Of a stretch of 58,820 nt of DNA, positions 3,056 to 58,820 are shown piece by piece. The notes beneath the pieces are model-generated. The model ran no database searches and was not told where the DNA came from. It worked only from the letters and a program-made list of their open reading frames with translations. A program made the position numbers and the translations under genes. Origin of the DNA: a virus (taxonomy: Duplodnaviria > Caudoviricetes); the IMG/VR virus record IMGVR_UViG_3300042923_001809, positions 1 through 58,820 of that record. One strand, given 5' to 3'. Each line of letters begins with the position of its first letter. Positions within the stretch are counted from its first letter, which is position 1.

Positions 3056-4189
3056 TCAGCTATTAATTAAATGAGATATGTAATCATACCCTTTAAGTGT
3101 AGTAACAAATATTTCACCTTTAGATCCTTTTTCCTCAATATATCCTTCCTTTAATAATTCTCTTAATGAATCCTCCCATTTAGCAACTTCACGACGTTCT
3201 TGAGATGTGATTAATTCAATCCTGCCAACGCATATAGATGTACCGTCAAAAGTAATCGTTTTTATGATAGTACCTTGTGGATCAGAACACGCAGTCTTCA
3301 AGAGAATTTGAGCATTCTCGCTTAATGTATTTTGTGTGTTTTGTTTATAAACGGCATTTATAAAGTCATTTCTATTATCTTCCCACCGAACATCATTTAT
3401 TTTCACTAATCCAAATTCTTCTATTATGTTATCTTTTAATTGTCCAAGTTTACTTTTAACATCAGTTAATTCGTTATCTAATTTCAATCCAATCTTGCGT
3501 GGATTGATTGCTCCTTTTATTTCCTTGAACTCAAAACCAGGTAATAGTATTGTTGTATATCTATTCTGTAATATCCAAGCGGCACCCATTTCATTCATAC
3601 ATGCAACGCTGTCATAATAATTATCTGATAAAATAAAAATAACATGCAAATCATGATTTTGAAACTGCAGTTTTAAGTAATCATAAATATCTTCACCAAG
3701 AGGGATATCATATCCCGTTTCAGAAGAACAAAATATTTGTTGTTCATTTAATCCAATATTTTCAAACAATCTTACTAATTTAGAAACATAACCTTTATCT
3801 AAGGATGCATGACTAATAAATATCTTTGGACTCTTTTGTTTCACTATGTGTACCTCCTCTATTTTTTGGGATGATGATATTTGCGGAGAATAATATTTGT
3901 CAATATTCTTACTAATCGCAGTCAATCCACCTGCGAGCTCATTAAAGTACCTCTCATCACTCCAACCATTAAACCTCTGATTAAGAATAACCAATATACC
4001 CCATATAAATTTGTCTTTTGTCCTATCATATATTTCTTGTAATAAAAGCTGTAGTTCCTGCTTCCAATTAGCAAATTCAGGAGTATCATATATGACATTA
4101 AGTGATGGTAAGCCTCCTCCGCCCGTAATGTGAAAATGTGATCTTATCATATCAGTTTGTTGAATTAAATCCATTAAGTCATTTTTCAT
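3056..4189 (-). CDS. TIR-domain protein (central TIR_2, C-terminal winged-helix-like region), probable anti-phage protein
   Basis: KIFISHAS..D, IFCSS, VIFILSDNYYDSVACMNEMGAAW with the catalytic Glu; start moved to the ATG after GAGGTG. Confidence 0.85.
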   Translation of the reverse strand: MKNDLMDLIQQTDMIRSHFHITGGGGLPSLNVIYDTPEFANWKQELQLLLQEIYDRTKDKFIWGILVILNQRFNGWSDERYFNELAGGLTAISKNIDKYYSPQISSSQKIEEVHIVKQKSPKIFISHASLDKGYVSKLVRLFENIGLNEQQIFCSSETGYDIPLGEDIYDYLKLQFQNHDLHVIFILSDNYYDSVACMNEMGAAWILQNRYTTILLPGFEFKEIKGAINPRKIGLKLDNELTDVKSKLGQLKDNIIEEFGLVKINDVRWEDNRNDFINAVYKQNTQNTLSENAQILLKTACSDPQGTIIKTITFDGTSICVGRIELITSQERREVAKWEDSLRELLKEGYIEEKGSKGEIFVTTLKGYDYISHLINS

Positions 4190-4233
4190 TTTATCCACCT
4201 CGTAATATACTAAAAATAGCAATTAAAAATATA

Positions 4234-6997: not shown

Positions 6998-8572
6998 TTA
7001 CTGCTCTTGTATTTCTACATCAATCTCTACACATGATTTTAATTCAATCGTTACCTTATCTTCATACACAGTTATTTTCTCTATCAACTTTCTAACCAAC
7101 TGTTCATCATATTCTTCCATCTTGTATTCCTGTTCGCTCAGGAATTCTTCCATTATTGCAATACTCTGCCTTTTACCATGCCGTTCAGCATTGTCCGCCA
7201 GACTATTCTGCTTAAGCTCACGTAACCGGTAAATTTCATCTGCAACTGTATTATAGTCAGATTTTGATATTGCAAGCTGGAGGATTTCCTGTTGTAGTTC
7301 TTCCAGCCTTTTGTCAATTTCAGCAGTATTATTATCATATTCCTCATTCAGAGCCGTGGCAATGTTCTTCTGCAGGATTGACAAGAACTCGTCTCTGCTA
7401 CCAATGACTTTATTGATTGCCTTTATCACAGCCTTATGTAGTGTTTCTTCATTTATAGTCGGCGAAGAACAGTCTGAGCCTTTCTCCTCAAGCCTACTGA
7501 CGCACCGCCAAACAATTGATTTACAACCCCTGTTGTTCCAATGCACTCTCCGGTATATTTCTCCGCACCCACAGTAAACTATTCCTGACAAAGCGTATTT
7601 CCCACTATATATTCGTTTTTTACCAGCTTTGCCTGAATGCAGGTTTGCCCTCCGAGCTATCTCCTCTTGTACCTGCATGAAGATTTCACGCGGTATGATG
7701 GGGTCATGGTTGTTTTCTACATAGTATTGTGGAACTATACCATTGTTGGCCACACGTCTTTTGGAGAGGAAATCCACCGTATATGTCTTTTGAAGCAAGG
7801 CGTCTCCTATATATTTTTCATTCTGTAATATTTTTCTTAACGTTTCCTGTCGCCACTTACTTTTGTTTGCTGCAGTAAGTATCTCATCTGCTTCCAATCC
7901 CCTAGCAATCTGCAGCAGGCTTGCTCCTTCAAGGTATTCCAAATAAATACGCTTTACAACTTCTGCTTCCACCGGTTCAATTATAAGTCGCTTATTTTCA
8001 TCCTTGGTATACCCTAAGAAACGATTGTGATTAATCTGTATTTCACCCTGCTGATATCGGTATTGTATACCTAACTTCACATTTTGACTAAGCGACTGAC
8101 TCTCCTGTTGAGCAAGGGATGCCATGATGGTAAGCATAACCTCCCCCTTAGAGTCCATGCTATTAATATTCTCCTTTTCAAAAAACACGGGGATGTTCTT
8201 ATCTTTCAGCTGTCGTATGTATTTAAGACAATCCAAGGTATTTCTTGCAAAACGGCTAATTGACTTAGTTATTATCATGTCAATTTTACCTGACATACAG
8301 TCTTCAATCATACGGTTGAATTCATCACGTTTCTTGGTATTGGTTCCTGAAATACCGTCATCCGCATAGATACCCGCAAGTTCCCATTCTTGGTTTCCTT
8401 GAATATAGTTTGTATAATGTTCTATCTGAACTTCATAACTGGTAGCCTGCTCTTCACTATCTGTAGAAACGCGGCAGTAGGCTGCTACCCTAAGTTTAGG
8501 CTTTTCTTCCATTTGAATATTGTTGCCAACACGAATTCGTGCCGGTATAACTCTAACACTTTTACTCTGCAT
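6998..8572 (-). CDS. Large serine recombinase (prophage integrase module, third gene)
   Basis: [26 protein letters not shown], Cys cluster. Confidence 0.95.
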
Positions 8573-8990
8573 CCTCTGCCACCTCACATACTATCAAACT
8601 AAAAGCATACTCCGCTTGCATATAAGGATTTTCATACAATTGTTTAGGAACAGGCATTTTGAAACATATTTTAGTTGCTACTCCCCTCATATCATCAGAT
8701 TCCCTTATTCTGCCCAGCATCTTTGCACGCCTCATCCTTTCATCTTCAGTCTTATGAAAAGTATCCTCATCTATCAGCGGAGGATAGAAGCCGTCACCAT
8801 AGTATCGTCTATTTCTCAACATTTTACCTATGGAAGGGTGCGGTTTACATATTCCCGTTTCTTTAGCAACCTCAGCCAAAGAAAGTCCTGAGAGATAAAA
8901 ATTGAACATTTTCTTAATCTGCTCTGCTTCTTTCTCAATGATCATTGCTTTTCCATTCTTAATCTCATAACCAAATGGAGTATGACTCAC
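8562..8990 (-). CDS. Small recombinase-domain protein (middle gene of the triple-recombinase cassette)
   Basis: [26 protein letters not shown] recombinase DNA-binding signature; no catalytic domain. Confidence 0.85.
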
Positions 8991-10553
8991 TTACCGCACC
9001 AACCTTTCTTTTAATGTAATATTACATTTCATTTTAAATCCAATCTCTTCCTGAGAGTGAACGATAATTTTATCAACAAAGCGTTCAAAGATCTCTTCAT
9101 CAAAGTGATTAATATAGGCAGCTTTTGAAGTCCATTTGAGAAGCTGTTCCACTTCCGTAAGAACTGTCATTTCTCCGTTTATGGAATGTGATAAAGCTTT
9201 TTTCTGCTCCATAAGCGTGGCAGCTTCTTTTTTTAGCTCATTACTCTGTGAAACAAACAATGTCTGCTCAAGATATCCTTTGGCCATGAGTGTTGTCAGA
9301 ATGCGGTTACGTTCCAAATTTTCCTCCAGCTTTACTTCCAATTCCTGTATTTGCACTACATTCTCCAAATAGTCTGTTTCTTTTAGGCTCTGCAAAAGTG
9401 GTTTCAAAATGTTTTTATGGCCGTAAATTAGCTTGTTTATCATAATGACGAATGCCCTGTGAATGTCTTCTTCCCGTATAAACTTCATGGAACATTGACA
9501 AATATCCTCAATATGCTTTGAACAGCACCATGCTGCATATTCACTTTTACTGCTGCTATAATGGATCCTGCGTTTAAAAGAGCTGCCACATTCAGAACAT
9601 ATTATCTTTCCTGACAAAGAATAGCGCTTCTGATATTTATTACTTCCCTTCTCTATGTTTTTCTCTTCTCTGCGCTGATTTAACATTTTTTTTACCGTCT
9701 GGAATATCTCATGGCTTATGATTGCTTCATGGTTATTCTTGACTAGGTACTGCTCCTTTTCCCCATGGTTTCTGTGCCGTTTGAAATTCTCATCAGTATA
9801 TTTTTTTTGATATAGTGCATCCCCAACATACTTCTCATTGGTTAGAATACCGTTAATCGTACTAGCATTCCATTGTTTTCCTTTTCTTGGTGGTATGCTT
9901 TCTGCATTCAGATCTTTGGCTATTTTTGCTGTTCCTTTTCCTTCAAGCATTTCAGAAAACATACGTTTTACAATCGTTGCCTGCTCCTCATTTACCACCA
10001 TGCAGCCATTTTTATTTTCATAACCATACGGTGGACAGGACATTTTATATGTCCCATTCTGGAACCGCTTCTGGATCGACCATTTATTGTTACTAGATAT
10101 CGAAACGGATTCATTCTCCGCCAGGCTGCTTAGGATAGTCAGCATTAATTCTCCATCCATTGATTTGGTATTGATGTTTTCCTTTTCAAAATAAATGAAT
10201 ATACCAAGATTAGTCAACTTGCGTACCAGTTCGAGACAATCCATTGTATTTCTTGCAAAACGGCTTATGGACTTTGTTATAATTAAATCAATCTTCCTGC
10301 TTTCACAATCAGATATCAGCCTAGTCAGTTCCGCACGCTTTTCTTTCTTCGTACCCGTTATTCCCTCATCATAATAAATCCCTACATACTCCCAGTCTGA
10401 ATTTGCTTTTATGTAAGTTTCGTAATGATCTCTCTGCGCTTTTAGGCTGATCAATTGTTCATCTGAATCCGTGGAAACACGGCAATAAGCTGCAACCCTA
10501 AGCTTTGGTTTTAGCATGATGGGGTCAGTTGATATTTTCCTTACTATTCTCAC
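8991..10553 (-). CDS. Large serine recombinase (prophage integrase module, first gene)
   Basis: [32 protein letters not shown]. Confidence 0.95.
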   Translation of the reverse strand: MRIVRKISTDPIMLKPKLRVAAYCRVSTDSDEQLISLKAQRDHYETYIKANSDWEYVGIYYDEGITGTKKEKRAELTRLISDCESRKIDLIITKSISRFARNTMDCLELVRKLTNLGIFIYFEKENINTKSMDGELMLTILSSLAENESVSISSNNKWSIQKRFQNGTYKMSCPPYGYENKNGCMVVNEEQATIVKRMFSEMLEGKGTAKIAKDLNAESIPPRKGKQWNASTINGILTNEKYVGDALYQKKYTDENFKRHRNHGEKEQYLVKNNHEAIISHEIFQTVKKMLNQRREEKNIEKGSNKYQKRYSLSGKIICSECGSSFKRRIHYSSSKSEYAAWCCSKHIEDICQCSMKFIREEDIHRAFVIMINKLIYGHKNILKPLLQSLKETDYLENVVQIQELEVKLEENLERNRILTTLMAKGYLEQTLFVSQSNELKKEAATLMEQKKALSHSINGEMTVLTEVEQLLKWTSKAAYINHFDEEIFERFVDKIIVHSQEEIGFKMKCNITLKERLVR

Positions 10554-10894: not shown

Positions 10895-11075
10895 TTTTTG
10901 CTAAAATAGTAACTAAATAATTAATTGAAGGTCGAATTAAAAATAATATGGTAAAATTATGTAACGTGGTTTATAATATTTTACAAATGAGTTCTTATTA
11001 AAAAACAAAGAATCAAATGAATGTAAAGGCTAGTATGATTTTTTGGCTACATATTATAGAAAGGCGGAGAGACAA

Positions 11076-13832
11076 ATGACAAATATTGCGAAGGATCCAG
11101 TGGTAGTTGTTACAATTTCTAAAATAGATAGGCAGATTTTGAATATTGATAAAGTTATCTGCCGTCACATAGACAACCTCGGTGTTTCGACACGAGGTGT
11201 TATTTCGCAGGACATTCTATCTCAACTGCGTAACTTTGTAGAGCATATAATGTTGAAATTCTATGCCAACGGCCGAGACATCGAAAACAGTTATGAAAAC
11301 ATCTGTAAAGCAATTGTTTTCGTTAAATCACGGGGTGATTTAAAAGTGCTATTACGGTTTCACGATTATTTACAAATTGTGGCTTCGCATTATACGCTTG
11401 ATGAGGAAAATTCTGAACGGTTAATGCTAAAATATTATGAATACCTTTTGAAAATTAAAAACCTATTATACGAGAGGTATTCTATAAAAGTCCTTGGTAA
11501 CCTCGATAAGTTCCCTCTGAGTACTGATTCCAACTTACAGGAGTACTATGAAAAGATTGCCAATAAAATAAAACGGTATAATAAACAGGGTGTTGGAAAA
11601 GCTGAGAAATATTATATTCAAAAGATTAAGCCATTCTTTGTCAATCAACGAATTTATTATGAAGTGACTTTCACACCCGCAAATGATTATGCGAGCAAAT
11701 TTAATCGAGTTATCGCATTCACAAGTTTGGAAATAACAGACAATTATGCTGTTAAATTTGCCTTAACTCGTGATAGCATTGAAATCCTTGGCAAGACTAT
11801 GCCTATTATTGTAATTGTGGATTGGGAAGTGGCAATTCGAGATTGCGAGTTTAAGAATTTCACAAGTATTATAAGAGGTAAAGCCGTTACAACGGGATAC
11901 ACCGAACAACAAGGTATCTCGCAGTTTCTAACTTCAACAGGATTTAATTTAACAGAACTCATTGATTTCTCTGATAGTGAATTTCAAAAGGTTAAGCAAA
12001 AAGTGACAGAACGAGCTAAGGTAATTGTGTTTTTTAATGACCTAGAGCGTTGTCGTGCTTTAATGAGAGTTAATGGTGCTGGTAGTAATCTCCTACGGTA
12101 TTTGCTTTACCATATGAATAATAAAGTTATTAAGAACCAGCAGCAAAATTATGCGAACGATAATTTATCTGGGCTTTATGTAAAAAATGGTTGTATCCCA
12201 TTCGATAGTATGCCCTTTAATTCCTCGCCAATAGAACATAACCCGAGACTTGGCGATTTGTTCGCTTGTATTGATGCCACTGATCGACAACACGAAATTC
12301 TTGCCCGATTGGTTAGGAACAACACCGAAATAAAAGGACAACTTTTTACGCCTATAAAAGATATTGTTGGGTTTGGAGATATAGACCCACTTATAAGGAC
12401 CTATAACAAAGCTCTATGGTATGGACATCGAGAAAACAGTAAATTAGTGATTGAAAACAACCATATCTTCATTAACGGCTATAAAAATGATACCTGTTAC
12501 ATTATTACTGAATTTAATAAATTAGTAAAAAACGGAGTCCAGAACTATTCAAACTCGGTTAAAGCGTGGTTGAGTGAACCTAACAATGGTGTTGATTGTG
12601 AAGAGAAAAAAGTGGCCTTAACCCATATGTTCGAAAACTCTAGAGTTGCTTTAGTATATGGCTCAGCTGGCACAGGAAAGTCTACGCTCATAAATCACAT
12701 TTCACATTTCTTTGCGGATAAGAAAAAATTATTTTTAGCACAAACCAACCCCGCTGTAGAAAATATGAAACGACGAGTGACAGCTTCAAACTGCACTTTT
12801 TCAACGATTACAAAGTTTCTAAAAAGAAAAAATGTCATTACTGAATATGACCTAGTTATCATAGACGAGTGCAGTACTGTGAACAATCGTGATATGAGAG
12901 ATATTCTTATCAAAGCTACATATACATTGTTGGTTTTAGTAGGCGATTCATATCAAATAGCCTCCATCCGGTTTGGCAACTGGTTTAGCGTTGCTCGTGC
13001 ATTTGTTCCCCAAACGTCAGTGTTTGATTTAACTAAGCCTTATCGGAGTAGCAAAGCAGGTTTACTTACATTATGGGACAGAGTACGAAAGATGGATGAT
13101 ACCATTCTTGAACTTATTACAAGACAAGGATATTCCTCCAGATTGGATGATTCCATTTTTTCATCTGCTTCTGCAGATGAAATTATTCTTTGTCTTAACT
13201 ATGATGGGCTATATGGAATTAACAACATTAATCGTTTCTTGCAAGAGAGCAATCCAAATTTAGCCGTCCACTGGGGAATTCAACAGTATAAGGTTAATGA
13301 TCCAATTTTATTTAATGAATCCGACCGTTTCGCACCAGTTATTTACAATAATATGAAAGGACGCATTGTAAGGATAACAATTCTTGATAGTGAAAAACCT
13401 ACTGAGCGCATACAGTTTGATATAGAACTTGATAAGGTAATCAATGGAATAGATGCCCTAGGTCAAGATTTCGAACTACTAGATAGTACTCAGAGAGGAA
13501 ACTCAGTTGTTCGTTTTTGTGTCAACAAACTAAAAAATGCCGATGAAGATGATGATGGTGCTTCAAAGGCAACTGTTCCGTTTCAAGTTGCCTATGCTGT
13601 TTCTATTCATAAAGCGCAAGGTCTAGAATACAACTCTGTCAAAATCGTAATAACAGACGAAATCGACGAGTTAATCACACACAATATCTTTTATACGGCT
13701 ATTACGCGAGCGCGGGAAAAACTAAACATTTATTGGACCCCTGAGGTTGAACAGAAAGTTCTGAGCAGTATTAAGCCACAAAACAATGGAAAAGACGTGG
13801 CTTTACTAAGGAGTTACATCCAAAAGCAATGA
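11076..13832 (+). CDS. SF1B RecD-like helicase with a long N-terminal extension (moron, possibly defence)
   Basis: GSAGTGKS, IIDECS, VGDSYQI, HKAQGLEY, YTAITRAR. Confidence 0.88.
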   Translation: MTNIAKDPVVVVTISKIDRQILNIDKVICRHIDNLGVSTRGVISQDILSQLRNFVEHIMLKFYANGRDIENSYENICKAIVFVKSRGDLKVLLRFHDYLQIVASHYTLDEENSERLMLKYYEYLLKIKNLLYERYSIKVLGNLDKFPLSTDSNLQEYYEKIANKIKRYNKQGVGKAEKYYIQKIKPFFVNQRIYYEVTFTPANDYASKFNRVIAFTSLEITDNYAVKFALTRDSIEILGKTMPIIVIVDWEVAIRDCEFKNFTSIIRGKAVTTGYTEQQGISQFLTSTGFNLTELIDFSDSEFQKVKQKVTERAKVIVFFNDLERCRALMRVNGAGSNLLRYLLYHMNNKVIKNQQQNYANDNLSGLYVKNGCIPFDSMPFNSSPIEHNPRLGDLFACIDATDRQHEILARLVRNNTEIKGQLFTPIKDIVGFGDIDPLIRTYNKALWYGHRENSKLVIENNHIFINGYKNDTCYIITEFNKLVKNGVQNYSNSVKAWLSEPNNGVDCEEKKVALTHMFENSRVALVYGSAGTGKSTLINHISHFFADKKKLFLAQTNPAVENMKRRVTASNCTFSTITKFLKRKNVITEYDLVIIDECSTVNNRDMRDILIKATYTLLVLVGDSYQIASIRFGNWFSVARAFVPQTSVFDLTKPYRSSKAGLLTLWDRVRKMDDTILELITRQGYSSRLDDSIFSSASADEIILCLNYDGLYGINNINRFLQESNPNLAVHWGIQQYKVNDPILFNESDRFAPVIYNNMKGRIVRITILDSEKPTERIQFDIELDKVINGIDALGQDFELLDSTQRGNSVVRFCVNKLKNADEDDDGASKATVPFQVAYAVSIHKAQGLEYNSVKIVITDEIDELITHNIFYTAITRAREKLNIYWTPEVEQKVLSSIKPQNNGKDVALLRSYIQKQ

Positions 13833-41042: not shown

Positions 41043-41438
41043 CTAATTACCTTCTAAAAATCTATCATGAGCTTTTCTAACACTTTCCCCAGTTATGCAA
41101 TGACTGATACTCGCAGCAACCTGCTCCCAACTAAGACCATTAATATATCTAAGACTTAATATCATACGCATTTGGCTATCATCCACACTTTCTATATACC
41201 GATTAAGTCGATTAAGTTCGTAAAAGCATTTCTTTAAATTTAAATCAAGCAACCCCTTTAAATCTGCAATTTCTGCCGCATACTTTCCAACTTTATCAAC
41301 CCAATCGGTGCCTTTGGGCATACCAGTTATCTTACTTGTATAGGATATAGCTAAATCCTCAAGTTCATGAAGTCTTCGTTGCTGCTCCTCAATTTCACGA
41401 TTTAGGTAATATAACTGAGACAATTCCTTTTTAGTCAT
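41043..41438 (-). CDS. ArpU/RinA-like late transcriptional activator
   Basis: LSQLYYLNREI, ILSLRYINGLSWEQVA. Confidence 0.85.
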   Translation of the reverse strand: MTKKELSQLYYLNREIEEQQRRLHELEDLAISYTSKITGMPKGTDWVDKVGKYAAEIADLKGLLDLNLKKCFYELNRLNRYIESVDDSQMRMILSLRYINGLSWEQVAASISHCITGESVRKAHDRFLEGN

Positions 41439-49870: not shown

Positions 49871-50190
49871 TTCAATTCCTCCGCATCCGCTAAAAGTGCG
49901 GCATAGTTTGCCTGATTGATTTTACTAAGCTTATCTGCCCCATACTTTTCAAGCAGTGCTCTGATCTCTGCTGTGAAACCATCATGTGACTTCTCTGCCA
50001 GTACTGCTCTGACCTGCTCAAGTGTAATTTTTTTCTCAGCAGGCTTTGTCTCAGTTACCTGAGCAGGTGTTTCTCTTTGTGCCTCACCCGCTGATGCCTT
50101 GGTATCCAAAGTATCTGCCAATGTCTGCAGGCTTCCAGCCAACTTTTTGAGGTCATTAACCACATCCAATAACAAATCAACTTTACTCAT
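49867..50190 (-). CDS. Conserved phage replication-module protein
   Basis: TLEQVRAVLAEKS..G, LLEKYGA.KLS. Confidence 0.8.
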   Translation of the reverse strand: MSKVDLLLDVVNDLKKLAGSLQTLADTLDTKASAGEAQRETPAQVTETKPAEKKITLEQVRAVLAEKSHDGFTAEIRALLEKYGADKLSKINQANYAALLADAEELK

Positions 50191-50386
50191 GCTCTTTGCC
50201 TCCTTCCCCACCTACCTCATTGATGGATAGCGTTTCCACGCTGTCACCTGGAACGATGACGGTTAACCGCTGCCTTTTCCCCAGAAGAAATCGTAGGAGC
50301 TTTTCTCTGACTGTCACATGACGGCAACTGATAATCCCACCACCCGGCGTTTCTTTTGAAACACTGATCTGCACTGTGTGTCTCAT
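50183..50386 (-). CDS. Conserved small phage protein
   Basis: REKLLRFLLG, IVPGDSV. Confidence 0.75.
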   Translation of the reverse strand: MRHTVQISVSKETPGGGIISCRHVTVREKLLRFLLGKRQRLTVIVPGDSVETLSINEVGGEGGKEHE

Positions 50387-50438
50387 ATGTTGTTCCTTCC
50401 TTTCCAAAGGCTTCATTTCATATGTGCCTTCATTAAAC

Positions 50439-50464
50439 AGCCACGGCAGGTAAAGGATGTGAGG
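50439..50464 (-). promoter_or_regulatory. Putative phage-sigma promoter heading the replication operon
   Basis: CCTCACA-N13-GTGGCT immediately after the sigma gene stop. Confidence 0.7.
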
Positions 50465-50468
50465 ATAT

Positions 50469-50912
50469 TTACAAAAGTTTATTTAAAGCTTTATAAGCTG
50501 TATGTAATCGATGAGATATAGCCGAGTGGTCCACTCCCTCCCGTTTTGCATAGTCATTTACAGATACTCCGTTAAAATAAATAGCAGTAATAAGTTCCCT
50601 CTGCTTCGGCTTCAGCCTGCCCACCGTATTCCGGATATGCTGCCTTGTATATTTACTCTCTAAGTCAGCGGCTATTTCAGCACTCTCAGAACAAATGCTA
50701 TTTTTAAATTCAAAAGCATCACGTGATAAGTGAGGATTGGTATCTGCTTGTCCATCAATATAGTCATAACCATCCAGTGAATTATGACGGCGAGTTTCTT
50801 TCCGGTTGACGTTATATTCTTTCCTGTCAAGTTCGAGGATGATTTCTCCCCACTCCTCTGAAACCTCAATTTCATGAGTTTGTCCAGTTACTGATGTGTA
50901 CCTGATTTTCAT
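50469..50912 (-). CDS. Phage sigma-70 region 4 / ECF-like factor
   Basis: L.PKQRELI.AIYFNG.SV.DYA.REGV..SAISHRL; ATG after AGGAG. Confidence 0.85.
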   Translation of the reverse strand: MKIRYTSVTGQTHEIEVSEEWGEIILELDRKEYNVNRKETRRHNSLDGYDYIDGQADTNPHLSRDAFEFKNSICSESAEIAADLESKYTRQHIRNTVGRLKPKQRELITAIYFNGVSVNDYAKREGVDHSAISHRLHTAYKALNKLL

Positions 50913-50915
50913 ACT

Positions 50916-51125
50916 GGTATCTCCTTTCTTTGCTGCCGGACAAGCCGGAAACAGGAGATACCTGAAAAAAGGCACAAAAAAATAAGACCTTGGCAACACT
51001 GTTTCCAGCGTTACCCCGGTCTTGGGTGGTGGCTTCTATATCGCTAATTCTACGGGAGAATCGTGAGCGGCGTCCTTGCGTAGAAGGTTGTACCAGGCGA
51101 TATATGCCCCTATTGACTCAGTCGG
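50916..51125 (-). ncRNA. Candidate structured cis-regulatory leader RNA (nested stems, attenuator, RBS-sequestering hairpin)
   Basis: Stems 51037-44/51097-104 and 51048-54/51079-85; GAAA-capped terminator 50976-51023; anti-SD 50953-62 pairing with 50916-25. Confidence 0.6.
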
Positions 51126-51139
51126 TAATTCTTGCTCTA

Positions 51140-51322
51140 TTAATTATTTTTGGAATTTGCTTTCGCTTTCACTGCCCTCTGGGTATTAAAATTAATATGA
51201 TAAATCTTACCACATTCATGGCACCGGCATGATACCTTAATATCAGCCGGCTTATCTGCAAATGTCTTTCCTGTCCCACACCAGGGGCAGGTTATTACGA
51301 TAGGAAACTTGATATCATGCAT
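51140..51322 (-). CDS. Small Zn-finger (CxxC..CxxC) protein
   Basis: CPWCG..CHECG; GGAG RBS. Confidence 0.75.
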   Translation of the reverse strand: MHDIKFPIVITCPWCGTGKTFADKPADIKVSCRCHECGKIYHINFNTQRAVKAKANSKNN

Positions 51323-51467
51323 TTACAATCTCTCCTTTTAGTAGTCCCTATGTAAGCAAGTTTGTTAACACCATGAGAATAAAATAGCAGGACAATTTCA
51401 TCCTGCGTAATCTGCATTTTATATCTGTACAGTTTTTATCTTTTAGCTTTTGTCATTGGTTGGTGAT

Positions 51468-51878
51468 TCAATGGCATCCCTCCTCCTGCATTTTCTTCAT
51501 GCCACAAATCTGATCAATAAAATCTTGCCACTGAGTATTAGAGATATTCAGATCCCGTGCTTTTCGTAATGCCACACGAGCTATCTCTGTCTTTCCGATA
51601 TAATCTACTAAATCTGGATAAATATTATTTCTACTCTTACCTGCAAGATCGTAGAAATAATAGGAATCATCCCCTTCGATACACAATACCTCGGTCATTT
51701 TTTCGAGATATTTCTCCGGTGCATAGCGGTTTCCTTTTTCAATATCGCTCAGATATGCCGGTGTCATATCCAGTTCCAAAGCTAGTCCACGTATTGACTT
51801 GCCGAGCGCCTCTCTGCGTGCTTTTACATATTCTCCAAATGAACAATGACATTCATTTGGTACTAATATATTCATCAT
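51468..51878 (-). CDS. XRE-family HTH repressor
   Basis: FGEYVKARRE..GKSIRGLA..L.MTPAYLSDIEKGNR. Confidence 0.92.
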   Translation of the reverse strand: MMNILVPNECHCSFGEYVKARREALGKSIRGLALELDMTPAYLSDIEKGNRYAPEKYLEKMTEVLCIEGDDSYYFYDLAGKSRNNIYPDLVDYIGKTEIARVALRKARDLNISNTQWQDFIDQICGMKKMQEEGCH

Positions 51879-51903
51879 GTAATTAATCCGCCTTTTACAT
51901 AAT

Positions 51904-51952
51904 ATGTAAGCTTTTATGCTTACATTGTACTACTTGTTTATATGTTTGTCAA
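51904..51952 (-). promoter_or_regulatory. XRE gene promoter with an overlapping palindromic operator
   Basis: TTGACA-17-TACAAT; ATGTAAGC-N6-GCTTACAT at 51904-51925, with a related site at 51350-51371. Confidence 0.75.
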
Positions 51953-52069
51953 TATTTAACATTTTTATGTTGTCAATAATCTACCGAAAATACATTTACA
52001 TTGTTTCACAAAAATCTATAATAAATTAGCTTTGTCCCATAATGGGAATATTTTACGTTTATTTTAGAA

Positions 52070-52098
52070 ATAAAGCCAATCGTCATGATTGGCTTTAT
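52070..52098 (-). terminator. Terminator after the S8 peptidase gene
   Basis: ataaagccaatc..gattggctttat inverted repeat. Confidence 0.7.
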
Positions 52099-52101
52099 CC
52101 T

Positions 52102-54324
52102 TTATCTTACAGTAACTCTTACCGGTTGAACTGGTGTAAAACGTCCTGCTGTTTCTTTTATTATTTCTGAATACAAATTTCCTGCTTCCGTTAAATCCTC
52201 AACTGTTATTACCAATGAATATGGTATTTCGTCATCATCCGCAACTCCCCATCGAGTAAACAACTCAAGCCATATTTCCCAACTTCCAGCGTCAAAACTT
52301 GAGAAGGTATTTGAAAAATGGAAGCATGAATCCCACTTATTACGATTATCTGCAACCGGTGGATTATCTACTACATTATTACCATTTGAATTTAATCTAT
52401 GTATAGATGTTGTAATGTAAGCTGCAGAATATTCACTTCCTTTTGTTCTATCTACTGGTGGTTGAGCTAAACACGTAACAGTAACCTTAACTTTTGATTC
52501 ACCCCGTTTTACCTTTGCCTCGGCAATTACCGTTGGAATATGAAATTTAACTCTTTTTTTTGTTAAACGGTTTAAGCTTCCTGCGTGTAAGAAAGACACT
52601 TTATTCTCAGAAGAATACATGCTATTTCTTGGTGATGATAGTCCTCTTCCATATAAATTTCCGGCAAAATCTGCCTCTTCTTGTGTTATATCTTCCTTTG
52701 TAAAAAGTGGAATTGCTCCATTATATAGTAAAGCCTGTGCCAGACCTACATCTTCATTAGGCACTGTTAGTAGTATTTCTGCAAGGTCACCTGCTACCGT
52801 TGGCGTTGTAAAACTCGTTCCTGGCAAAGCACAATAACCGGTTGATGAAAGGCACAACGCGTATGGATCACTTGGTGTCATACCATTTTTAAATTGAGTA
52901 GCTCCATAGGCAACAATATCCGGTTTATAAAAACCGCAAAATCCCGGGCCACGTCTTGAATAAGGAGCAATGTCTTTTTCCTTACTTACACTACCAGGGT
53001 GTGTTTGACCTACGACTGAGCCCACTGTAATTGCAAGCATAGCATCTGCAGGTTCAGCAATCTTGCTGTCGTCATCATCCAAAATGTCTTTCAGGTTATT
53101 TTCCGAAAAACCTAATTGATGATTTCCTGCCGATACAACGAATTTAACACCATATTTTCTAGTAAGCATATCCAGTTCACATCCTAATATACTCATTTCG
53201 TCCCCATCGATTGGCTGACTTGCATTGTATGAAAAGTTATAAATTTTTGCTACTGATGCAAAAGTATCAACAGCCTCTCTTATTCTTTTGATGACAACAT
53301 TTGATGGTGTTTTGTCGCTATCAATTATATTAGCATCAATAATTTTTGCTCTTGGTGTTAAATAAGGGTCTGGCAAATGAAATCCAAGCTCTTCGAAAGC
53401 CGCTCTACTCGCAACAGGAGTACCATGATTTCCAAAGAAAGAGGGTACGCTACATCCTGTTGCTCTCCAATGGACAGGTACGATACCAGCTAAACCTGCT
53501 GGTAAATTAACGCCATCATCCAATATAACAATTGCAGGTAAATCTTCAATTTTAATACCTGGATCTAGTTGCAGTCCTTTTCCTAATGGAATAGACGCAC
53601 TAGGAGCGTAGACTTGAAAAAAAGATGTTTCCTCGATTCTGTAGATTGCTTGATCATCTGCAATTTCATTAAAACTTGCCATAGTAACCATTGCTCTGAT
53701 AATTGCTGTTCCATCAGTTAACCGATACGGTTCACCTTGGAGAGTTCCATTTTTACTTACAATTTTCTCAGTCAATTTAGTCTGAGCCCTTTGTTGGATA
53801 TCCTCTCCTAAATTTGGTAATAACATCATTTGAACGTCTACGGAAATCCGCTCTTTGTTTTCTTCAAGGTAACGCGCTAAAGACGATGATTGTTTATCAA
53901 CAGATCTAAACGGCTCAAATCCATTAATATACTGAAAATCATGTACTGTTCCTTGATCTCTGTATCTATTAATTCGCCCCTGTAAGCTATCAAAAATGTC
54001 TCTTTTTGCGGAAACAACAGCATGATTTTTATCTCTTACTGCATTTATTTTTAAGCCTTCATCTTCCATTAATTTTTTACGGTTAGAAAAATCCTCACCA
54101 TCCTGGAGCACTACCTTAAAGGTCATTATATCTTCATCACTTAAAGAATCTCCTGCTCTTAACCTTTGAAATACATCAAATATTTCCTGCAGTCCCTGAG
54201 ATAATTTATTGCCATGTTCTGCATAATCTAATCCATACTCCTTATTTCGGCCGGTTGGCTTTTTTATTATATCCTTAATTTCTTCTGATGGTATCCATAA
54301 ATGTCGTTTTTGTTCATCATTCAT
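52102..54324 (-). CDS. ietS: S8 subtilisin-like serine protease (IetS)
   Basis: ILDDGV, NHGT.VAS, SAGN, GTSF; overlaps the AAA gene. Confidence 0.9.
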   Translation of the reverse strand: MNDEQKRHLWIPSEEIKDIIKKPTGRNKEYGLDYAEHGNKLSQGLQEIFDVFQRLRAGDSLSDEDIMTFKVVLQDGEDFSNRKKLMEDEGLKINAVRDKNHAVVSAKRDIFDSLQGRINRYRDQGTVHDFQYINGFEPFRSVDKQSSSLARYLEENKERISVDVQMMLLPNLGEDIQQRAQTKLTEKIVSKNGTLQGEPYRLTDGTAIIRAMVTMASFNEIADDQAIYRIEETSFFQVYAPSASIPLGKGLQLDPGIKIEDLPAIVILDDGVNLPAGLAGIVPVHWRATGCSVPSFFGNHGTPVASRAAFEELGFHLPDPYLTPRAKIIDANIIDSDKTPSNVVIKRIREAVDTFASVAKIYNFSYNASQPIDGDEMSILGCELDMLTRKYGVKFVVSAGNHQLGFSENNLKDILDDDDSKIAEPADAMLAITVGSVVGQTHPGSVSKEKDIAPYSRRGPGFCGFYKPDIVAYGATQFKNGMTPSDPYALCLSSTGYCALPGTSFTTPTVAGDLAEILLTVPNEDVGLAQALLYNGAIPLFTKEDITQEEADFAGNLYGRGLSSPRNSMYSSENKVSFLHAGSLNRLTKKRVKFHIPTVIAEAKVKRGESKVKVTVTCLAQPPVDRTKGSEYSAAYITTSIHRLNSNGNNVVDNPPVADNRNKWDSCFHFSNTFSSFDAGSWEIWLELFTRWGVADDDEIPYSLVITVEDLTEAGNLYSEIIKETAGRFTPVQPVRVTVR

Positions 54325-55465
54325 TATCTAACACCCCCTTATATTTTTTTACTTGATAGTCTAGCGTATTATGTGATATTCCCATAGCCTTTGCTGCGGC
54401 TCTCAATGAAACGCCGCGCTCCAACATCTCACAAATTACTTTCATTGATTCATCTCCGCTATCTGAGAATTTTGTTAATTGTTGAATTAATATAGCCATC
54501 ACATCTTCTGTTTTCAGTTTCTGATCAATTAAATATTTTTTAGCTGCTGCTGTCATCAATTCTTCAAGCTGTGCTCCACTTATTCCTTCTGAAACTTTTG
54601 CAATCGCTTTACAATCAACCTTTGCCTCAATTCCATACTTTTCAATACCTTTTTGTATTAATGTTTTTCTTTGCTCTTCATTTGGTAATTCTAGATTAAT
54701 TGTAACATTAAATCTACGCCAAATAGCTGGATCCAATAAGTGTTCATGATTTGTAGCAGCAATCAAAAAAACATTAGCTGGCATATTATCAAAATTTTGA
54801 AGCAAAGTTGTAACTACACGCTTTAGCTCTCCTAGTTCGTTACTATCATCACGTTTTTTTGCAATGGCATCAAACTCATCCAAGAATAATATTATTCTCT
54901 GATTTCTTACTGAATCAAAAACTTTCCTTAGATTTGTACTTGTTTGCCCTAAATAGGATGAAACCAATCCATCTAAACGTACGTATGCTATTGGTAAATC
55001 TAACTCATGTCCTAATGCATATGCTGTAATAGTTTTTCCACAACCTGGCGGACCACACAATAAAACTCTATTTACTGGTGTCATACTATGCTTCAATAGA
55101 TTTGCAGCATTCTTTTGTTCTGACATAATTTGTTCCAATATTTTTTTTTGGTTTTCTGGCAAGATAACATCATTAAAAGATACATTAGGTCTAACTACTT
55201 CATACAATTCTAATAAGCTATCTTTATCTCTTGGTGTTGCTGTCTGTGATGATTGGGCAGAAAACCCTGATATACTTCCGCCAATATCAGATGATGCATT
55301 TCCACTCTTTTTTCTATTTTCATAAGCCCGCCTAAGCCGTGATGCTGTTGGAACATTTCCTTTTTTCTCTTCATCACTCACCAATTTATTTATCGCTTCT
55401 AAGAATTCTCGTTCATCACCGCTACAATGAGCTATAATTAAATTTTCTATAAGCTCTGATTTCAT
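54317..55465 (-). CDS. ietA: AAA+ ATPase (IetA) with a C-terminal HTH
   Basis: GPPGCGKT, FLDEFDAI, AATN, LDPAIWRRF; GVSLRAAAKAMGISHNTL. Confidence 0.9.
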   Translation of the reverse strand: MKSELIENLIIAHCSGDEREFLEAINKLVSDEEKKGNVPTASRLRRAYENRKKSGNASSDIGGSISGFSAQSSQTATPRDKDSLLELYEVVRPNVSFNDVILPENQKKILEQIMSEQKNAANLLKHSMTPVNRVLLCGPPGCGKTITAYALGHELDLPIAYVRLDGLVSSYLGQTSTNLRKVFDSVRNQRIILFLDEFDAIAKKRDDSNELGELKRVVTTLLQNFDNMPANVFLIAATNHEHLLDPAIWRRFNVTINLELPNEEQRKTLIQKGIEKYGIEAKVDCKAIAKVSEGISGAQLEELMTAAAKKYLIDQKLKTEDVMAILIQQLTKFSDSGDESMKVICEMLERGVSLRAAAKAMGISHNTLDYQVKKYKGVLDNE

Positions 55466-56010: not shown

Positions 56011-56733
56011 TCACTTAATAAAAATAAATATATACTCGTGTGCCAACAACAAAAAGGAACTATGTTGTTTCTCCCAAAACTTTGTTGATTTACAATTATG
56101 TTGCTCTTTTATAACTATTTCCTTAGACTTAAATTTTGCATTTAGAAAACAATTCATGACTTGGAAACCTAATGGAACAACACAACCTTTACTGCGGATG
56201 TCACCCATCATAACCGCACAAAGTCTTCCCTTTTTTAATACTCGATATGCCTCTCTCGCAACATTATTCATTTGATGTATAAATTCTTCTACTCCTAATA
56301 ACGACAGATCTCCATCTAGACTTTGGCTATAATTAATGATATCTGCATATGGTGGATGCGTGCAAATAAGATCCATACTCTCATTTGTAATAAATGACAA
56401 ATTGCGTGCATCGCCTTTTTTAACATTTTGCTGGGTTTTAGTATTGCATTGGAAATTAAGATTTTGGTTAGATAATAAAATAGATTGCTCATTGATATCG
56501 ACACCAATGGCATTACGATCAAGTAGTTTTGCTTCGACTAATGTAGTACCACTTCCTAAGAATTGATCTAGAATCCATTCATTTGGTTGACTATAACGAA
56601 GAATAATATTTCTTGGTACATATGGGGACCAATTTCCTCTGTATACCCCACAATGAGTAGCCCAATCACCTCTTTCAGGAAATGACCAAACAGTTGTTGA
56701 CTCCAACTCAAATTTATTTGGTTCTAATTTTAT
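56011..56733 (-). CDS. DNA methyltransferase (HPPY-type amino-MTase), probable ATA start
   Basis: LDQFLGSGTT, THPPY; AAGGAGGT upstream of an in-frame ATA at 56733. Confidence 0.85.
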   Translation of the reverse strand: MKLEPNKFELESTTVWSFPERGDWATHCGVYRGNWSPYVPRNIILRYSQPNEWILDQFLGSGTTLVEAKLLDRNAIGVDINEQSILLSNQNLNFQCNTKTQQNVKKGDARNLSFITNESMDLICTHPPYADIINYSQSLDGDLSLLGVEEFIHQMNNVAREAYRVLKKGRLCAVMMGDIRSKGCVVPLGFQVMNCFLNAKFKSKEIVIKEQHNCKSTKFWEKQHSSFLLLAHEYIFIFIK

Positions 56734-56844
56734 ATCAATACCTCCTTACACTATATTTTATCTGCATTATACTACTAAACACATAATAATACTAGTAAAT
56801 TTTTCCTCTTTCCCTCTTATTAAATCATAGAAATCATTTTACAG

Positions 56845-56894
56845 AAAAAAGAGACAAGCCATCATTCACCTACTTGATGACTTATCTCATTTTT
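56845..56894 (-). terminator. Terminator after the AlwI-family gene
   Basis: gagacaagccatca..tgatgacttatctc imperfect inverted repeat with an A-run. Confidence 0.5.
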
Positions 56895-56987
56895 GATTTC
56901 TTTTCTTCCTTTTCATTATTAGAAGTAATTTTGACACTAATAAACAAATTTATATTTTCCGATAATCTTACAATCAATCCAAATCTT

Positions 56988-58820
56988 TTAAGCTTGTATC
57001 ATTTTATTCTTTATCAATTCTGAAATCATAAAATCAATATCTCGTTTCCACTCTGGTGCTTCTCTTCCGTACTTTAAATCAAAACACGCAGTGAATAAAC
57101 TTAATAATTTGTCAGGATGCACAGTATTATTCTCAAATAAACTTTTAAAAAATGATGCAAATTGACTTAATGTAAATGGTACAATTCTCAATGCCATTTT
57201 TTTGTCATCTTGAGTATACCAAACCCCAATTCGAAAAGTTTCTGCTGTATTTGAATCTATTTTATTAGCAATAAACATTCCATAAACAGGCTTATTATTA
57301 TTTAAAACAAGATCTGCTACATGTCGACGAACTGGTTCACCCTCCATGGCCTCCTGCCTTGAATTTGTTGACATAGTAACTTCAACTACAATAATATACT
57401 CATCAAATTCAAAAATCATGTCTGGTCCGCCGCCTGGTGCTGTTCCTACAGGCAAATAATCTTGATCTATACTAAATCCCCTGGCTTCATATGGCTTATT
57501 AGATATATGATTTATTGCTAAAAAAGCTCGCCATAAAATCCATTCTAAGTATGCTGCAGCCTCAGACTTAGGAACTTTAATTGTATAATCTTCATTCAAC
57601 TCTTTTTCCTGTCCATTATTAACAACTAACAAATTCATATACTCATAAATTTCTTTCCACTCATTATATTGATTTTTAGCGTATTCCTCCTCTTTGAACT
57701 TATCAATGTCCCTCTTTAAGCTGTTTCGTACCATATTTATATTAGCTGCTGAATCAAGAGGTACATCTGGAATAGTATATTGGATATTATATGTAGTCAA
57801 CTCCGAAACCAGATCTTGTAAAACTTGATTTGCTGTATCAATATTGTCCGTTGGTAACGGCGCACCATTACATAATTGCTTGTATCGCTCAATTAACGGC
57901 TCTGAACTTGTAACTTTCTTACTAAGTTCAAAAGCTAAAGTTCGATACTCTGGTACAATACAGATACCTCTTCCTGCTCTCTTGACAATTCCTGAAGATA
58001 CAATATATCGTAGATTCATATCAGCATAATCACTAAAGTTTACTTTTAGTTTTAAGTAATGTTCCCATGCTAAATCGATCAAATCTCGATCATACTTTTT
58101 CTTATTATTTGCTGCCATCCTATTTTTTCTTATATCCAAAACCTTCTCAACAACTTTATCAACATCATAATTAGGATTAGTTGTTTGAACACATATTGCA
58201 AATTCAATAAAATTAATCCTTGTATCTCCTGTAATTTCCTCCAACTTAAACATCACAGTAAGTACCCATAGAAGCGGTGAATAACTAAGTTCCTCGGTTA
58301 GCTTTTCCATTGGTACAACTAACCCTCTCAAAAAGCACTCTTGTTGTGCAGAAATAGTATCGGCATTATAAAATGTTTTGCCAATAGGTGTTATGTCATC
58401 CACTGGACCCAATTCAGTTTGAGAAAAACCATCTTTTAATGTTACTTCTGGATATGCAAATCCATATTTATTAAACATAAGTCTATATTTACGAGTTATA
58501 CTAGCATCTTGATCTTTATTTAAGTCACCACCTATTTCACCTGTATGGAATAGTAGTTTTTTAAAAGCCACCTGATCTTTTGGTTCACGTAATTTCCCTA
58601 CTAAATTTGACTCGACATATACTTTAAATCCACTGGGTATACGCCATGGATTTCTCATTCCTGTATTCCCAATTAGCCAAATATCTATTGGTTCTTTTAC
58701 AACCCTGGTCTCTTCAACTGTTTTTTCCTTAGTTTTTTCGCCATCCTTATATTTAATTTTCTTTGATTCTGTTACCTGATAAACATCCTGTCCAATTTTA
58801 ATTATTTTTGCCTTCGCCAT
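56988..58820 (-). CDS. AlwI-family type IIS restriction/nicking endonuclease
   Basis: GNTGMRNPWR, APGGGPDM, VEVTM..QEAMEGEPVRRH. Confidence 0.88.
   Translation of the reverse strand: MAKAKIIKIGQDVYQVTESKKIKYKDGEKTKEKTVEETRVVKEPIDIWLIGNTGMRNPWRIPSGFKVYVESNLVGKLREPKDQVAFKKLLFHTGEIGGDLNKDQDASITRKYRLMFNKYGFAYPEVTLKDGFSQTELGPVDDITPIGKTFYNADTISAQQECFLRGLVVPMEKLTEELSYSPLLWVLTVMFKLEEITGDTRINFIEFAICVQTTNPNYDVDKVVEKVLDIRKNRMAANNKKKYDRDLIDLAWEHYLKLKVNFSDYADMNLRYIVSSGIVKRAGRGICIVPEYRTLAFELSKKVTSSEPLIERYKQLCNGAPLPTDNIDTANQVLQDLVSELTTYNIQYTIPDVPLDSAANINMVRNSLKRDIDKFKEEEYAKNQYNEWKEIYEYMNLLVVNNGQEKELNEDYTIKVPKSEAAAYLEWILWRAFLAINHISNKPYEARGFSIDQDYLPVGTAPGGGPDMIFEFDEYIIVVEVTMSTNSRQEAMEGEPVRRHVADLVLNNNKPVYGMFIANKIDSNTAETFRIGVWYTQDDKKMALRIVPFTLSQFASFFKSLFENNTVHPDKLLSLFTACFDLKYGREAPEWKRDIDFMISELIKNKMIQA

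Follow-up and report, generated by a model that had tools for sequence, protein, structure and literature searches.

A zinc-ribbon gene linked to a terminator-containing RNA core in the putative control region of a Heliusvirales-like provirus

In phage lambda, the PR operon runs from a repressor-controlled promoter through the gene of a small helix-turn-helix (HTH) regulator to an RNA site with a terminator and on to the replication genes, all of them co-directional; cro is its first gene, a terminator comes next, and the N protein acts at nut. The regulated genes of ICEBs1 are read from a divergent promoter. In Firmicutes, RNA-binding proteins decide whether a leader terminator forms, by antitermination at the RAT sites of BglG/LicT or by attenuation with TRAP and PyrR, which in Bacillus favor termination within leader RNAs. 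There are also anti-sigma factors that bind zinc and hold region 4. To our knowledge, the way in which prophages of gut and soil Clostridia choose between lysis and lysogeny is almost unknown. Here, we analyzed the IMG/VR record IMGVR_UViG_3300042923_001809, a complete provirus of 58,820 bases (this whole stretch is referred to below as the window), and in particular its positions 50469-51952, where the genes of an XRE-family repressor, a zinc-ribbon protein, and a regulator with a sigma region 4 (the sigma-like gene) are found together with a leader RNA. The anatomy of the region, the structure of its RNA by covariation, the conservation of its operators, the linkage of gene and RNA in both directions, and the co-variation of protein subtype and RNA motif were all computed here.

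In phage Mu, Com binds a short hairpin beside a structure that hides the start signals of mom (PMC6483171), and RinA, ArpU, and LtrC are phage late-gene activators distantly related to sigma factors (PMC3753634). The deposited phages closest to the window are Candidatus Heliusvirales, and it is best explained as a temperate siphovirus related to these phages of Clostridia, with the region studied as its immunity and early-control module.

Linkage of the zinc-ribbon gene and the RNA core

The elements of the zinc-ribbon gene and of the leader that follows it are listed below in the order of transcription.

51140-51322, minus strand: zinc-ribbon gene, 60 amino acids (aa), four cysteines (CPWC ... 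CxxC) and a basic tail (phrog_6504, E 2.4e-6)
50913-51139, minus strand: leader, 227 nucleotides (nt) between the zinc-ribbon and region-4 genes
51113-51128, minus strand: 5' single-stranded motif UUACCGACUGAGUCAA (family core CYGACUG), beginning 12 nt past the zinc-ribbon stop codon
51028-51110, minus strand: helix P0 (GGGGC with GCC-A-CC), enclosing the lineage-specific helices P1 and P2 (RNAalifold)
50976-51023, minus strand: intrinsic terminator t2, with a 17-pair stem, a GAAA loop, and U7
50916-50962, minus strand: Shine-Dalgarno hairpin with perfectly complementary 10-nt arms, which pairs the AGGAG of the next gene

Protein and RNA core were found together whichever of the two was used as the query. 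When viral contigs were searched with the protein as the only query, 12 loci were obtained; nine were new, and in all nine the RNA core lay at the stop codon or no more than 33 nt from it. The compact RNA in these new loci consisted of UUACUGACUGACC, a GGGGC-loop-GCCACCA element, and a terminator with the base GGCCGGAG/CUCCGGCC. This protein-RNA arrangement was also seen in one deposited Heliusvirales genome, and in a viral contig (locus L114) the protein was accompanied by a leader reduced to 5' motif, P0, and terminator, after which came a different HTH gene. We also used a covariance model (R2) of 11 RNA cores from which the window's lineage had been left out and which comprised 18 pairs. 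Compensatory changes were present in five of the 18 pairs (shuffles, 1.7 +/- 1.0, with 3 of 500 reaching 5). R2 matched the window at 50977-51128 with 37 bits and an E value of 3.2e-7, as well as 11 other loci outside the training set. Every sense-strand match with E < 1e-4 (23 of 23) lay no more than 260 nt downstream of a zinc-ribbon gene, and no locus lacking this gene had an R2 match at the same threshold. Among 151 genomes of one bacterial family, R2 found matches in four, and in all four a zinc-ribbon open reading frame (ORF) of 62 to 70 aa ended 3 to 13 nt before the match.

Protein subtype and RNA 5' motif co-vary. CYGACUG followed 19 of the 20 zinc-ribbon genes of the window's subtype and none of the 13 genes of a second, Com-like subtype, seven of which had CMGAGCA instead. 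The pair also remained constant while its neighbors changed, since the first downstream gene was either region-4-like or HTH_11/DeoR-like and an ImmA gene upstream was either present or absent.

A separate observation concerns the end of the zinc-ribbon gene. The 5' motif UGACUGA contains UGA in two reading frames, and in five of nine loci (L145, L146, and L148 to L150) the zinc-ribbon stop codon lies inside it, so terminating ribosomes would sit on the proposed binding site.

The leader as a whole was more conserved than the flanking coding sequence. In an alignment of seven sequences, RNAalifold predicted 65 pairs, nine of them with compensatory changes, a number reached by none of 500 shuffles (3.4 +/- 1.3) and not approached in slid registers (0 to 3). 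Helices P1 and P2 accounted for eight pairs with compensatory changes, and P0, which was retained in the short forms of the motif, showed a G-C to A-U swap in L149. The stem of t2 (50984-51023) is a G+C-rich hairpin followed directly by a U tract (U7, 50976-50982), as is typical of an intrinsic terminator, and its base (GGCCGGAG/CUCCGGCC) was conserved in sequence across the family, with compensatory changes. In the Shine-Dalgarno hairpin, the only change in the arms was compatible with a G-U pair. No Rfam family matched at its gathering score over the whole window, and only chance-level matches (E >= 0.2) were found in 50300-52200. A full-length leader model (R1) found one copy in the window and only generic, weak, terminator-like matches in other lineages. 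A long-range helix between the 5' motif and the sequence past the terminator was predicted in L005, L110, and L007, and not convincingly in the window.

The combination of terminator and Shine-Dalgarno hairpin is general in the relatives of the sigma-like gene. Of 73 distinct regions upstream of this gene, 54 had a terminator no farther than 200 nt away, versus 20 of 252 control gene starts, which were taken from the same loci. The Shine-Dalgarno sequence was at least 75% paired in 65 of 66 upstream regions (109 of 252 controls), and the two features occurred together in 46 of 73 (7 of 252 controls). Loci of another lineage (L001, L015, and L026) have a DUF3825 gene directly upstream of the leader, with a further region-4 protein before it; neither the XRE nor the zinc-ribbon gene is found there, and the leader with its terminator and Shine-Dalgarno hairpin is still present. 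In the deposited phage record of L139 (1914-2207; PV036438.1, 43413-43706), a 98-aa "hypothetical protein" has been annotated across the leader RNA and its terminator, which is probably a false gene call.

The zinc-ribbon family is of modest size: of 1.84 billion cluster representatives, 70 were matched at E <= 0.001. Its motif is CPWCxKGKxxAD...SCxCxxCGxxY followed by a basic tail, and across 50 family sequences three cysteines were invariant and the fourth nearly so. Matches to phrog_6504 (function unknown) were found in 24 of these 50 members, to PHROG 6417 ("translational regulator") in seven, to Zn_ribbon_Com in two at E <= 0.01, and, weakly, to Lar_restr_allev in 23. The window protein itself scored 17.4 bits against the Lar family PF14354, whose cutoff is 28.6. 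Its AlphaFold2 model (predicted local distance difference test [pLDDT] of 84.7) is a generic five-strand ribbon, for which Foldseek found nothing in the PDB at E <= 0.001, and sequence searches of the PDB with both zinc-ribbon profiles returned only generic zinc motifs and repeat artifacts.

Like Com, the protein has a four-cysteine zinc module within some 60 aa. Other lineages have zinc ribbons at the same position with the Com-like pattern CPxCGRRxxD...KCxxC, and the alignment of the window family to these positional homologues with hhalign had a probability of 94% and an E value of 1e-7. The best Com-like case, L008, matched PHROG 6417 "translational regulator" (E 9.2e-8), "gpCom" (E 3.2e-4), and Pfam Zn_ribbon_Com (E 1.6e-4), the last under its cutoff; with PF10122, L008 scored 21.5 bits and L003 16.2 bits versus a cutoff of 22.9. 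Of the 30 clusters nearest to the protein in the ESM Atlas, those ranked 10 and 11 were named Com, which we take as a lead only. Small proteins without cysteines also occur at this position (72 aa in the largest lineage; L004, L022, L032, L078, and L009). The idea that they were degenerate Com folds was dropped because hhalign gave a probability of 0.1% against the Com-like set.

Operators, repressor, and region-4 regulator

Upstream and downstream of the zinc-ribbon gene and its leader, the following features complete the control region.

51924-51952, minus strand: promoter P1 of the XRE operon, TTGACA-17-TACAAT, sigma-70-type, 11 of 12 consensus positions
51904-51925, no strand: putative operator O1, a perfect 8-6-8 palindrome ATGTAAGC-N6-GCTTACAT
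51468-51878, minus strand: XRE-family repressor gene, 136 aa, of ImmR-like size (Pfam HTH_31, E 2.3e-8; HTH_3, E 2.9e-8)
51377-51406, minus strand: t1, a hairpin with a U-rich tail, a weak terminator after the XRE gene (terminator scan)
51350-51371, no strand: O2, a degenerate operator-like site with a perfect right half-site and 5 of 8 positions of the left one
50469-50912, minus strand: regulator of 147 aa with sigma region 4 only (Pfam Sigma70_r4_2 only), the first gene after the gate, heading the replication module

An original prediction for this region, made from the DNA letters alone, described a lysogeny switch of co-directional genes without a divergent cro. All the features do lie on the minus strand, at the positions that it gave, and the CI/Cro arrangement of two divergent repressors with common operators was not found, as no plus-strand gene adjoins the XRE gene. 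It had also placed an operator over the XRE promoter and a related site before the zinc-ribbon gene, and both are real and conserved in relatives. O1 begins inside the -10 hexamer, overlaps the -10 element and the transcription start, and is the sole perfect copy in the window. With up to three mismatches, O2 was the only other O1-like site among all 58,820 bases, and it precedes the ribosome-binding site of the zinc-ribbon gene by about 20 nt. As two or more such matches occurred in 6 of 100 shuffles, the number of sites alone is weak evidence, and the conservation of the operators is the stronger argument. The -35 and -10 elements of P1 and O1 were kept in all five relatives with upstream sequence (L002, L019, L003, L020, and L031), in which the sequence beyond about -45 of P1 is unrelated, homology starting at that point. 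The right half-site of O1 was kept in five of six sequences, an O2-like site was found at the same position in six of six relatives with sequence between the XRE and zinc-ribbon genes, and t1 was kept in seven of seven sequences, with a variable loop.

Inspection by eye of six more distant relatives, all bearing ImmA, gave a similar picture. Each had a hairpin with a T run and then an inverted repeat before the zinc-ribbon gene; the repeat was perfect in four of the six and in L146 was the O1 sequence of the window. The type of repeat tracks the XRE clade, with TTACGC-N6-GCGTAA in the clade of L144, L147, and L148 and GTAAGC- or GTTAAC-type repeats in the clade of L145, L146, and L151 and in that of the window, which is expected if XRE binds the repeat.

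A plus-strand promoter-like sequence (TTTACA-16-TATAAT, 11 of 12 positions) was noticed at 51995-52022, pointing away from the XRE gene, with a two-way terminator (52070-52098) some 80 nt beyond it. L002 has a similar plus-strand sequence, followed by a divergent gene of 346 aa. The site could drive a short RNA or be a remnant.

Homologues of XRE with 31 to 41% identity are found upstream of the sigma-like gene in many relatives, and in L023, L007, L008, and L005 (four of four proteins tested) the gene right after the homologue codes for an M78 (ImmA/IrrE) peptidase of 254 to 314 aa. The pairing makes this family a variant of the ImmR/ImmA type and not a wholly separate kind of switch. The accompanying statement that there is no ImmA held for the window's lineage and failed for its relatives: Peptidase_M78 had no match in the whole provirus record, and in the five close relatives with the interval in view the gap between the XRE and zinc-ribbon genes is too short for an M78 gene. 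Of the traits of ImmR/ImmA systems, the XRE-type HTH and a predicted site at its own promoter are present in the window, and the adjacent M78 gene is absent; the lineage either lost the peptidase or never had one. No other repressor candidate was found among the ORFs scanned. Some trigger other than ImmA would presumably remove XRE in this lineage.

The protein encoded after the leader had been called a sigma factor, a label that does not fit, as no region 2 was detected with Pfam, in the structural model, or with Foldseek. Pfam and NCBIfam matched region 4 only (residues ~94 to 145; Sigma70_r4_2, 27.9 bits versus a cutoff of 25.7), and phrog_11138, of unknown function, matched over the whole length (E 1.9e-33). 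The AlphaFold2 model (pLDDT of 80) consists of a beta-hairpin, a long helix, a linker of poor confidence, and a C-terminal HTH, so that the beta-hairpin and one long helix stand where region 2 would be. With Foldseek, the last ~55 to 70 residues fitted region 4 of extracytoplasmic function (ECF) sigma factors (SigL/SigE, root mean square deviation [rmsd] of ~2 Å over 62 to 67 columns), and the few longer alignments fitted poorly (rmsd of 11 to 23 Å). Since only region 4, with its HTH, is present, we consider the protein a small HTH DNA-binding regulator rather than a sigma factor. In relatives, it is replaced by other HTH proteins, of the HTH_11/DeoR type.

Proposed gate and its alternatives

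To explain these observations, we propose, as the most likely reading, that an ImmR-like repressor is followed by a gate for antitermination and translation that depends on a protein; our belief and our doubt in it are about equal. XRE would bind O1 over its own promoter and the degenerate O2 past t1, keeping P1 low and blocking or looping at O2. Transcripts that pass t1 would encode the zinc-ribbon protein and, within a few bases of its stop codon, would reach the CYGACUG-P0-terminator RNA and, farther on, the ribosome-binding-site hairpin. The zinc-ribbon protein would then bind the RNA core and let the polymerase read through t2, possibly opening the ribosome-binding site too. Once the repressor is lost, P1 would fire strongly, the protein would accumulate, and the region-4 HTH regulator and the replication genes would be exposed. 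An antiterminator that releases sigma had been foreseen for this locus. The reciprocal linkage of gene, RNA, and terminator is as that idea predicted; the sigma label was wrong, and t2 gates the whole replication operon, not only the region-4 gene. That the zinc-ribbon protein binds the RNA, and that its action is positive, we infer.

Transcript data came from assembled RNA libraries. Contigs bridged t1 in four of four metatranscriptomic runs from four studies (relatives 90 to 99% alike), bearing in mind that RNA libraries can contain DNA, and one contig of 660 nt extended from the XRE gene across O2 and the whole zinc-ribbon gene as far as the leader's 5' domain. No contig of the four runs crossed the terminator 50984-51023 and one stopped at 51029, although neither transcript ends nor expression levels can be read from contigs. 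Co-transcription of the zinc-ribbon gene with XRE in lysogens may be indicated by the contigs that bridge t1.

Several results weigh against the antitermination gate. If co-transcription with XRE in lysogens is real, a pure activator must be held by dose or by O2, at which no sigma-70-type promoter was found on inspection. A script that looked for perfect palindromes with arms of 7 nt in the 160-nt stretch before XRE found none in the five ImmA-bearing relatives with sequence there. Regarding the protein, the window member had no match to Pfam PF10122 (Zn_ribbon_Com) even at E <= 1 nor to PHROG 6417, and matched only phrog_6504, whose function is unknown, with weak Lar and Zn_ribbon_4 scores; its best fold match was LysW (template modeling score of 0.6, E 0.38), that is, a generic zinc ribbon only. 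Regarding the RNA, no antiterminator helix competing with t2 was found on inspection, and seven Com-like loci (L006, L007, L035, L015, L011, L033, and L034) had no R2 match at E <= 0.1. Among distinct relatives of the sigma-like gene, 63 of 79 had neither the protein nor the motif, yet had the terminator and the Shine-Dalgarno hairpin; because the leader is kept in relatives without a zinc-ribbon gene, the gate can exist with other partners or none. Finally, the linkage is partly shared descent, since the loci are related phages, and motifs and profiles were defined on the same data.

One alternative, which we regard as unlikely, is that the protein is made with XRE in the lysogen, binds the RNA core, and strengthens termination or keeps the ribosome-binding site closed, the lytic genes opening as its supply falls. 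Immunity would then have an additional, post-transcriptional layer. The sharing of a transcription unit with the repressor, as seen in the contigs that bridge t1, agrees with this role, the linkage of protein and RNA fits it as well as it fits antitermination, and TRAP and PyrR of Bacillus would be precedents. However, t2 is already strong alone (~17 pairs and U7), and with P1 derepressed more of the protein would be made, not less. In addition, a terminator and an operator-like repeat precede the gene in every lineage read, which suggests that the gene is kept low in lysogens.

We think it similarly improbable that gene and RNA are neighbors without direct interaction. The leader would then work by itself or together with host factors, either insulating as a terminator or modifying the polymerase as a put-like RNA does, and the zinc-ribbon protein would serve in Lar-like restriction alleviation, in DNA binding, or in binding the region-4 protein. 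The weak Lar_restr_allev matches in the family fit such a role, as does the finding that most relatives of the sigma-like gene have terminator and Shine-Dalgarno hairpin without any zinc-ribbon gene, and anti-sigma-type structures (e.g., 3hug and 5wuq) were among the fold matches of region 4. A complex prediction for the region-4 and zinc-ribbon proteins gave a score of 0.11, versus a mark of 0.32, in a run without controls, and counts neither for nor against such a partnership. The recovery of the protein in every locus found with the RNA only, the closeness of the RNA to the stop codon in all nine new loci, and the co-variation of protein subtype and RNA motif speak against mere neighborhood, and the retention of the pair when the downstream regulator is swapped for an unrelated HTH protein argues against a partnership with region 4. 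The last possibility, that XRE is a Cro-like early regulator at an ordinary early-operon start, with lysogeny held elsewhere or otherwise, is very unlikely, for although XRE is the first gene of a long co-directional operon with a terminator next, as cro is, and the record lacks a peptidase or sensor domain, no other repressor candidate was seen among the ORFs scanned, its homologues are paired with ImmA-like M78 peptidases (the signature of a cleavable maintenance repressor), and the palindrome lies over XRE's own promoter.

Provirus context and comparison with known systems

All long ORFs with family matches between 14442 and 58820 are encoded on the minus strand, and none was found on the plus strand. 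The order of the modules is as follows.

Upstream end, in order of transcription: AlwI-type restriction enzyme and methylase, IteA/IteS-like ATPase and S8-peptidase pair, XRE/zinc-ribbon control region
After the control region, in order of transcription: DUF2800 nuclease, Enc34-type single-stranded DNA-binding protein, family-A polymerase, VapE-type primase, SNF2 helicase
Then: second region-4-like regulator; packaging, head, tail, and lysis genes; three large serine recombinases
1-1761 (plus strand), 6998-10553 (minus strand), 3056-4222 (minus strand), and 11043-13832 (plus strand): far-end stretches that look like cargo and integration modules

The module was 95 to 97% identical in the chromosome of Anaerocolumna sp. 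MB42-C2 (L002), and blastn of 50183-52110 gave zero matches against 50,697 phage records. All genes of the control module carry the label "hypothetical protein" in the deposited Heliusvirales genomes examined, and a word search of the main text of the paper describing the order found repressor, sigma, zinc, lysogen, and antitermination to be absent from it.

Directly upstream of the XRE promoter (52102-55465, minus strand) are an AAA ATPase of 382 aa and an S8 peptidase of 740 aa. They are similar to the IteA/IteS anti-phage pair, with NCBIfam E values of 2.9e-89 and 5.2e-52, although neither match reaches its curated cutoff. Homology with relatives stops just upstream of the XRE promoter, so this pair is variable cargo or flanking DNA. 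It adjoins an N6/N4 DNA methylase and an AlwI-family restriction endonuclease (56011-58820, minus strand), with which it forms a small defense island at the regulatory end of the provirus. The second small region-4-like regulator (41043-41438, minus strand) matched phrog_36 "transcriptional regulator" with an E value of 4.1e-18. It has the SNF2 helicase on one side and the HNH and small-terminase genes on the other, a position where late-gene activators are usually found. The far end encodes a TIR-domain protein, a plus-strand superfamily 1 (SF1) helicase, and four large serine recombinases, of which one is on the plus strand where the record starts.

In more general terms, the zinc-ribbon gene and the CYGACUG-P0-terminator RNA could be a self-contained antitermination cassette of Firmicutes phages that commits ImmR-type prophages, including the abundant gut Heliusvirales, to lytic growth. 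We put this forward tentatively, leaning somewhat toward doubt. Such a cassette may produce a terminator-resistant polymerase along the ~35-kb co-directional lytic operon. If true, this would be a compact and portable unit of protein and RNA terminator, a handle to predict or manipulate induction in these phages, and a candidate orthogonal antitermination part for Gram-positive synthetic biology; as Rfam had no match, its RNA would be a new regulatory family. Judged mostly by abstracts, the cassette and its RNA motif appear to be undescribed in the literature, and their parts are of known kinds.

Among the closest of these known kinds is Com/mom of Mu. Com too is a zinc protein of ~60 aa that has four cysteines and a basic or disordered tail, its gene lies directly upstream of its target, and the target mRNA has a short hairpin and hidden start signals (PMC6483171), to which the RNA core and the Shine-Dalgarno hairpin would correspond here. 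The differences are that our RNA core holds a strong intrinsic terminator 40 to 250 nt ahead of the start-site hairpin, that the target is a regulator with a replication operon and not a DNA-modification gene, and that the RNA motif is CYGACUG, whereas that of Com is CC(N)2-3GAG. The region-4 protein recalls RinA, ArpU, and LtrC, which are likewise small, have an HTH resembling sigma region 4, and turn on a later block of phage genes (PMC3753634). In contrast to them, it is encoded ahead of the replication module, carries an N-terminal domain of its own (PHROG 11138), and is gated by a leader.

With ImmR/ImmA of ICEBs1 and related prophages, the locus shares an XRE-type repressor of ImmR size and, in relatives, an M78 gene right after it. 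Unlike ICEBs1, the window and five close relatives have no peptidase, and the regulated genes are co-directional, with terminators between them. For the zinc-ribbon/RNA gate we found no counterpart in the ImmR/ImmA literature, judged mostly by abstracts. BglG/LicT antitermination and TRAP/PyrR attenuation involve unrelated protein folds, and no overlapping antiterminator hairpin like theirs was found here.

The order of elements is that of lambda PR with N-nut, and a small basic protein would open the terminator by acting on a nearby RNA site. Here, however, there is no divergent CI/PRM, and the factor is a zinc ribbon encoded immediately 5' of the RNA site on the same transcript; there is no sequence relation, and no search for boxA or boxB was made. 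If the antitermination gate is correct, the locus would be seen as the logic of Mu Com/mom set in the layout of lambda PR.

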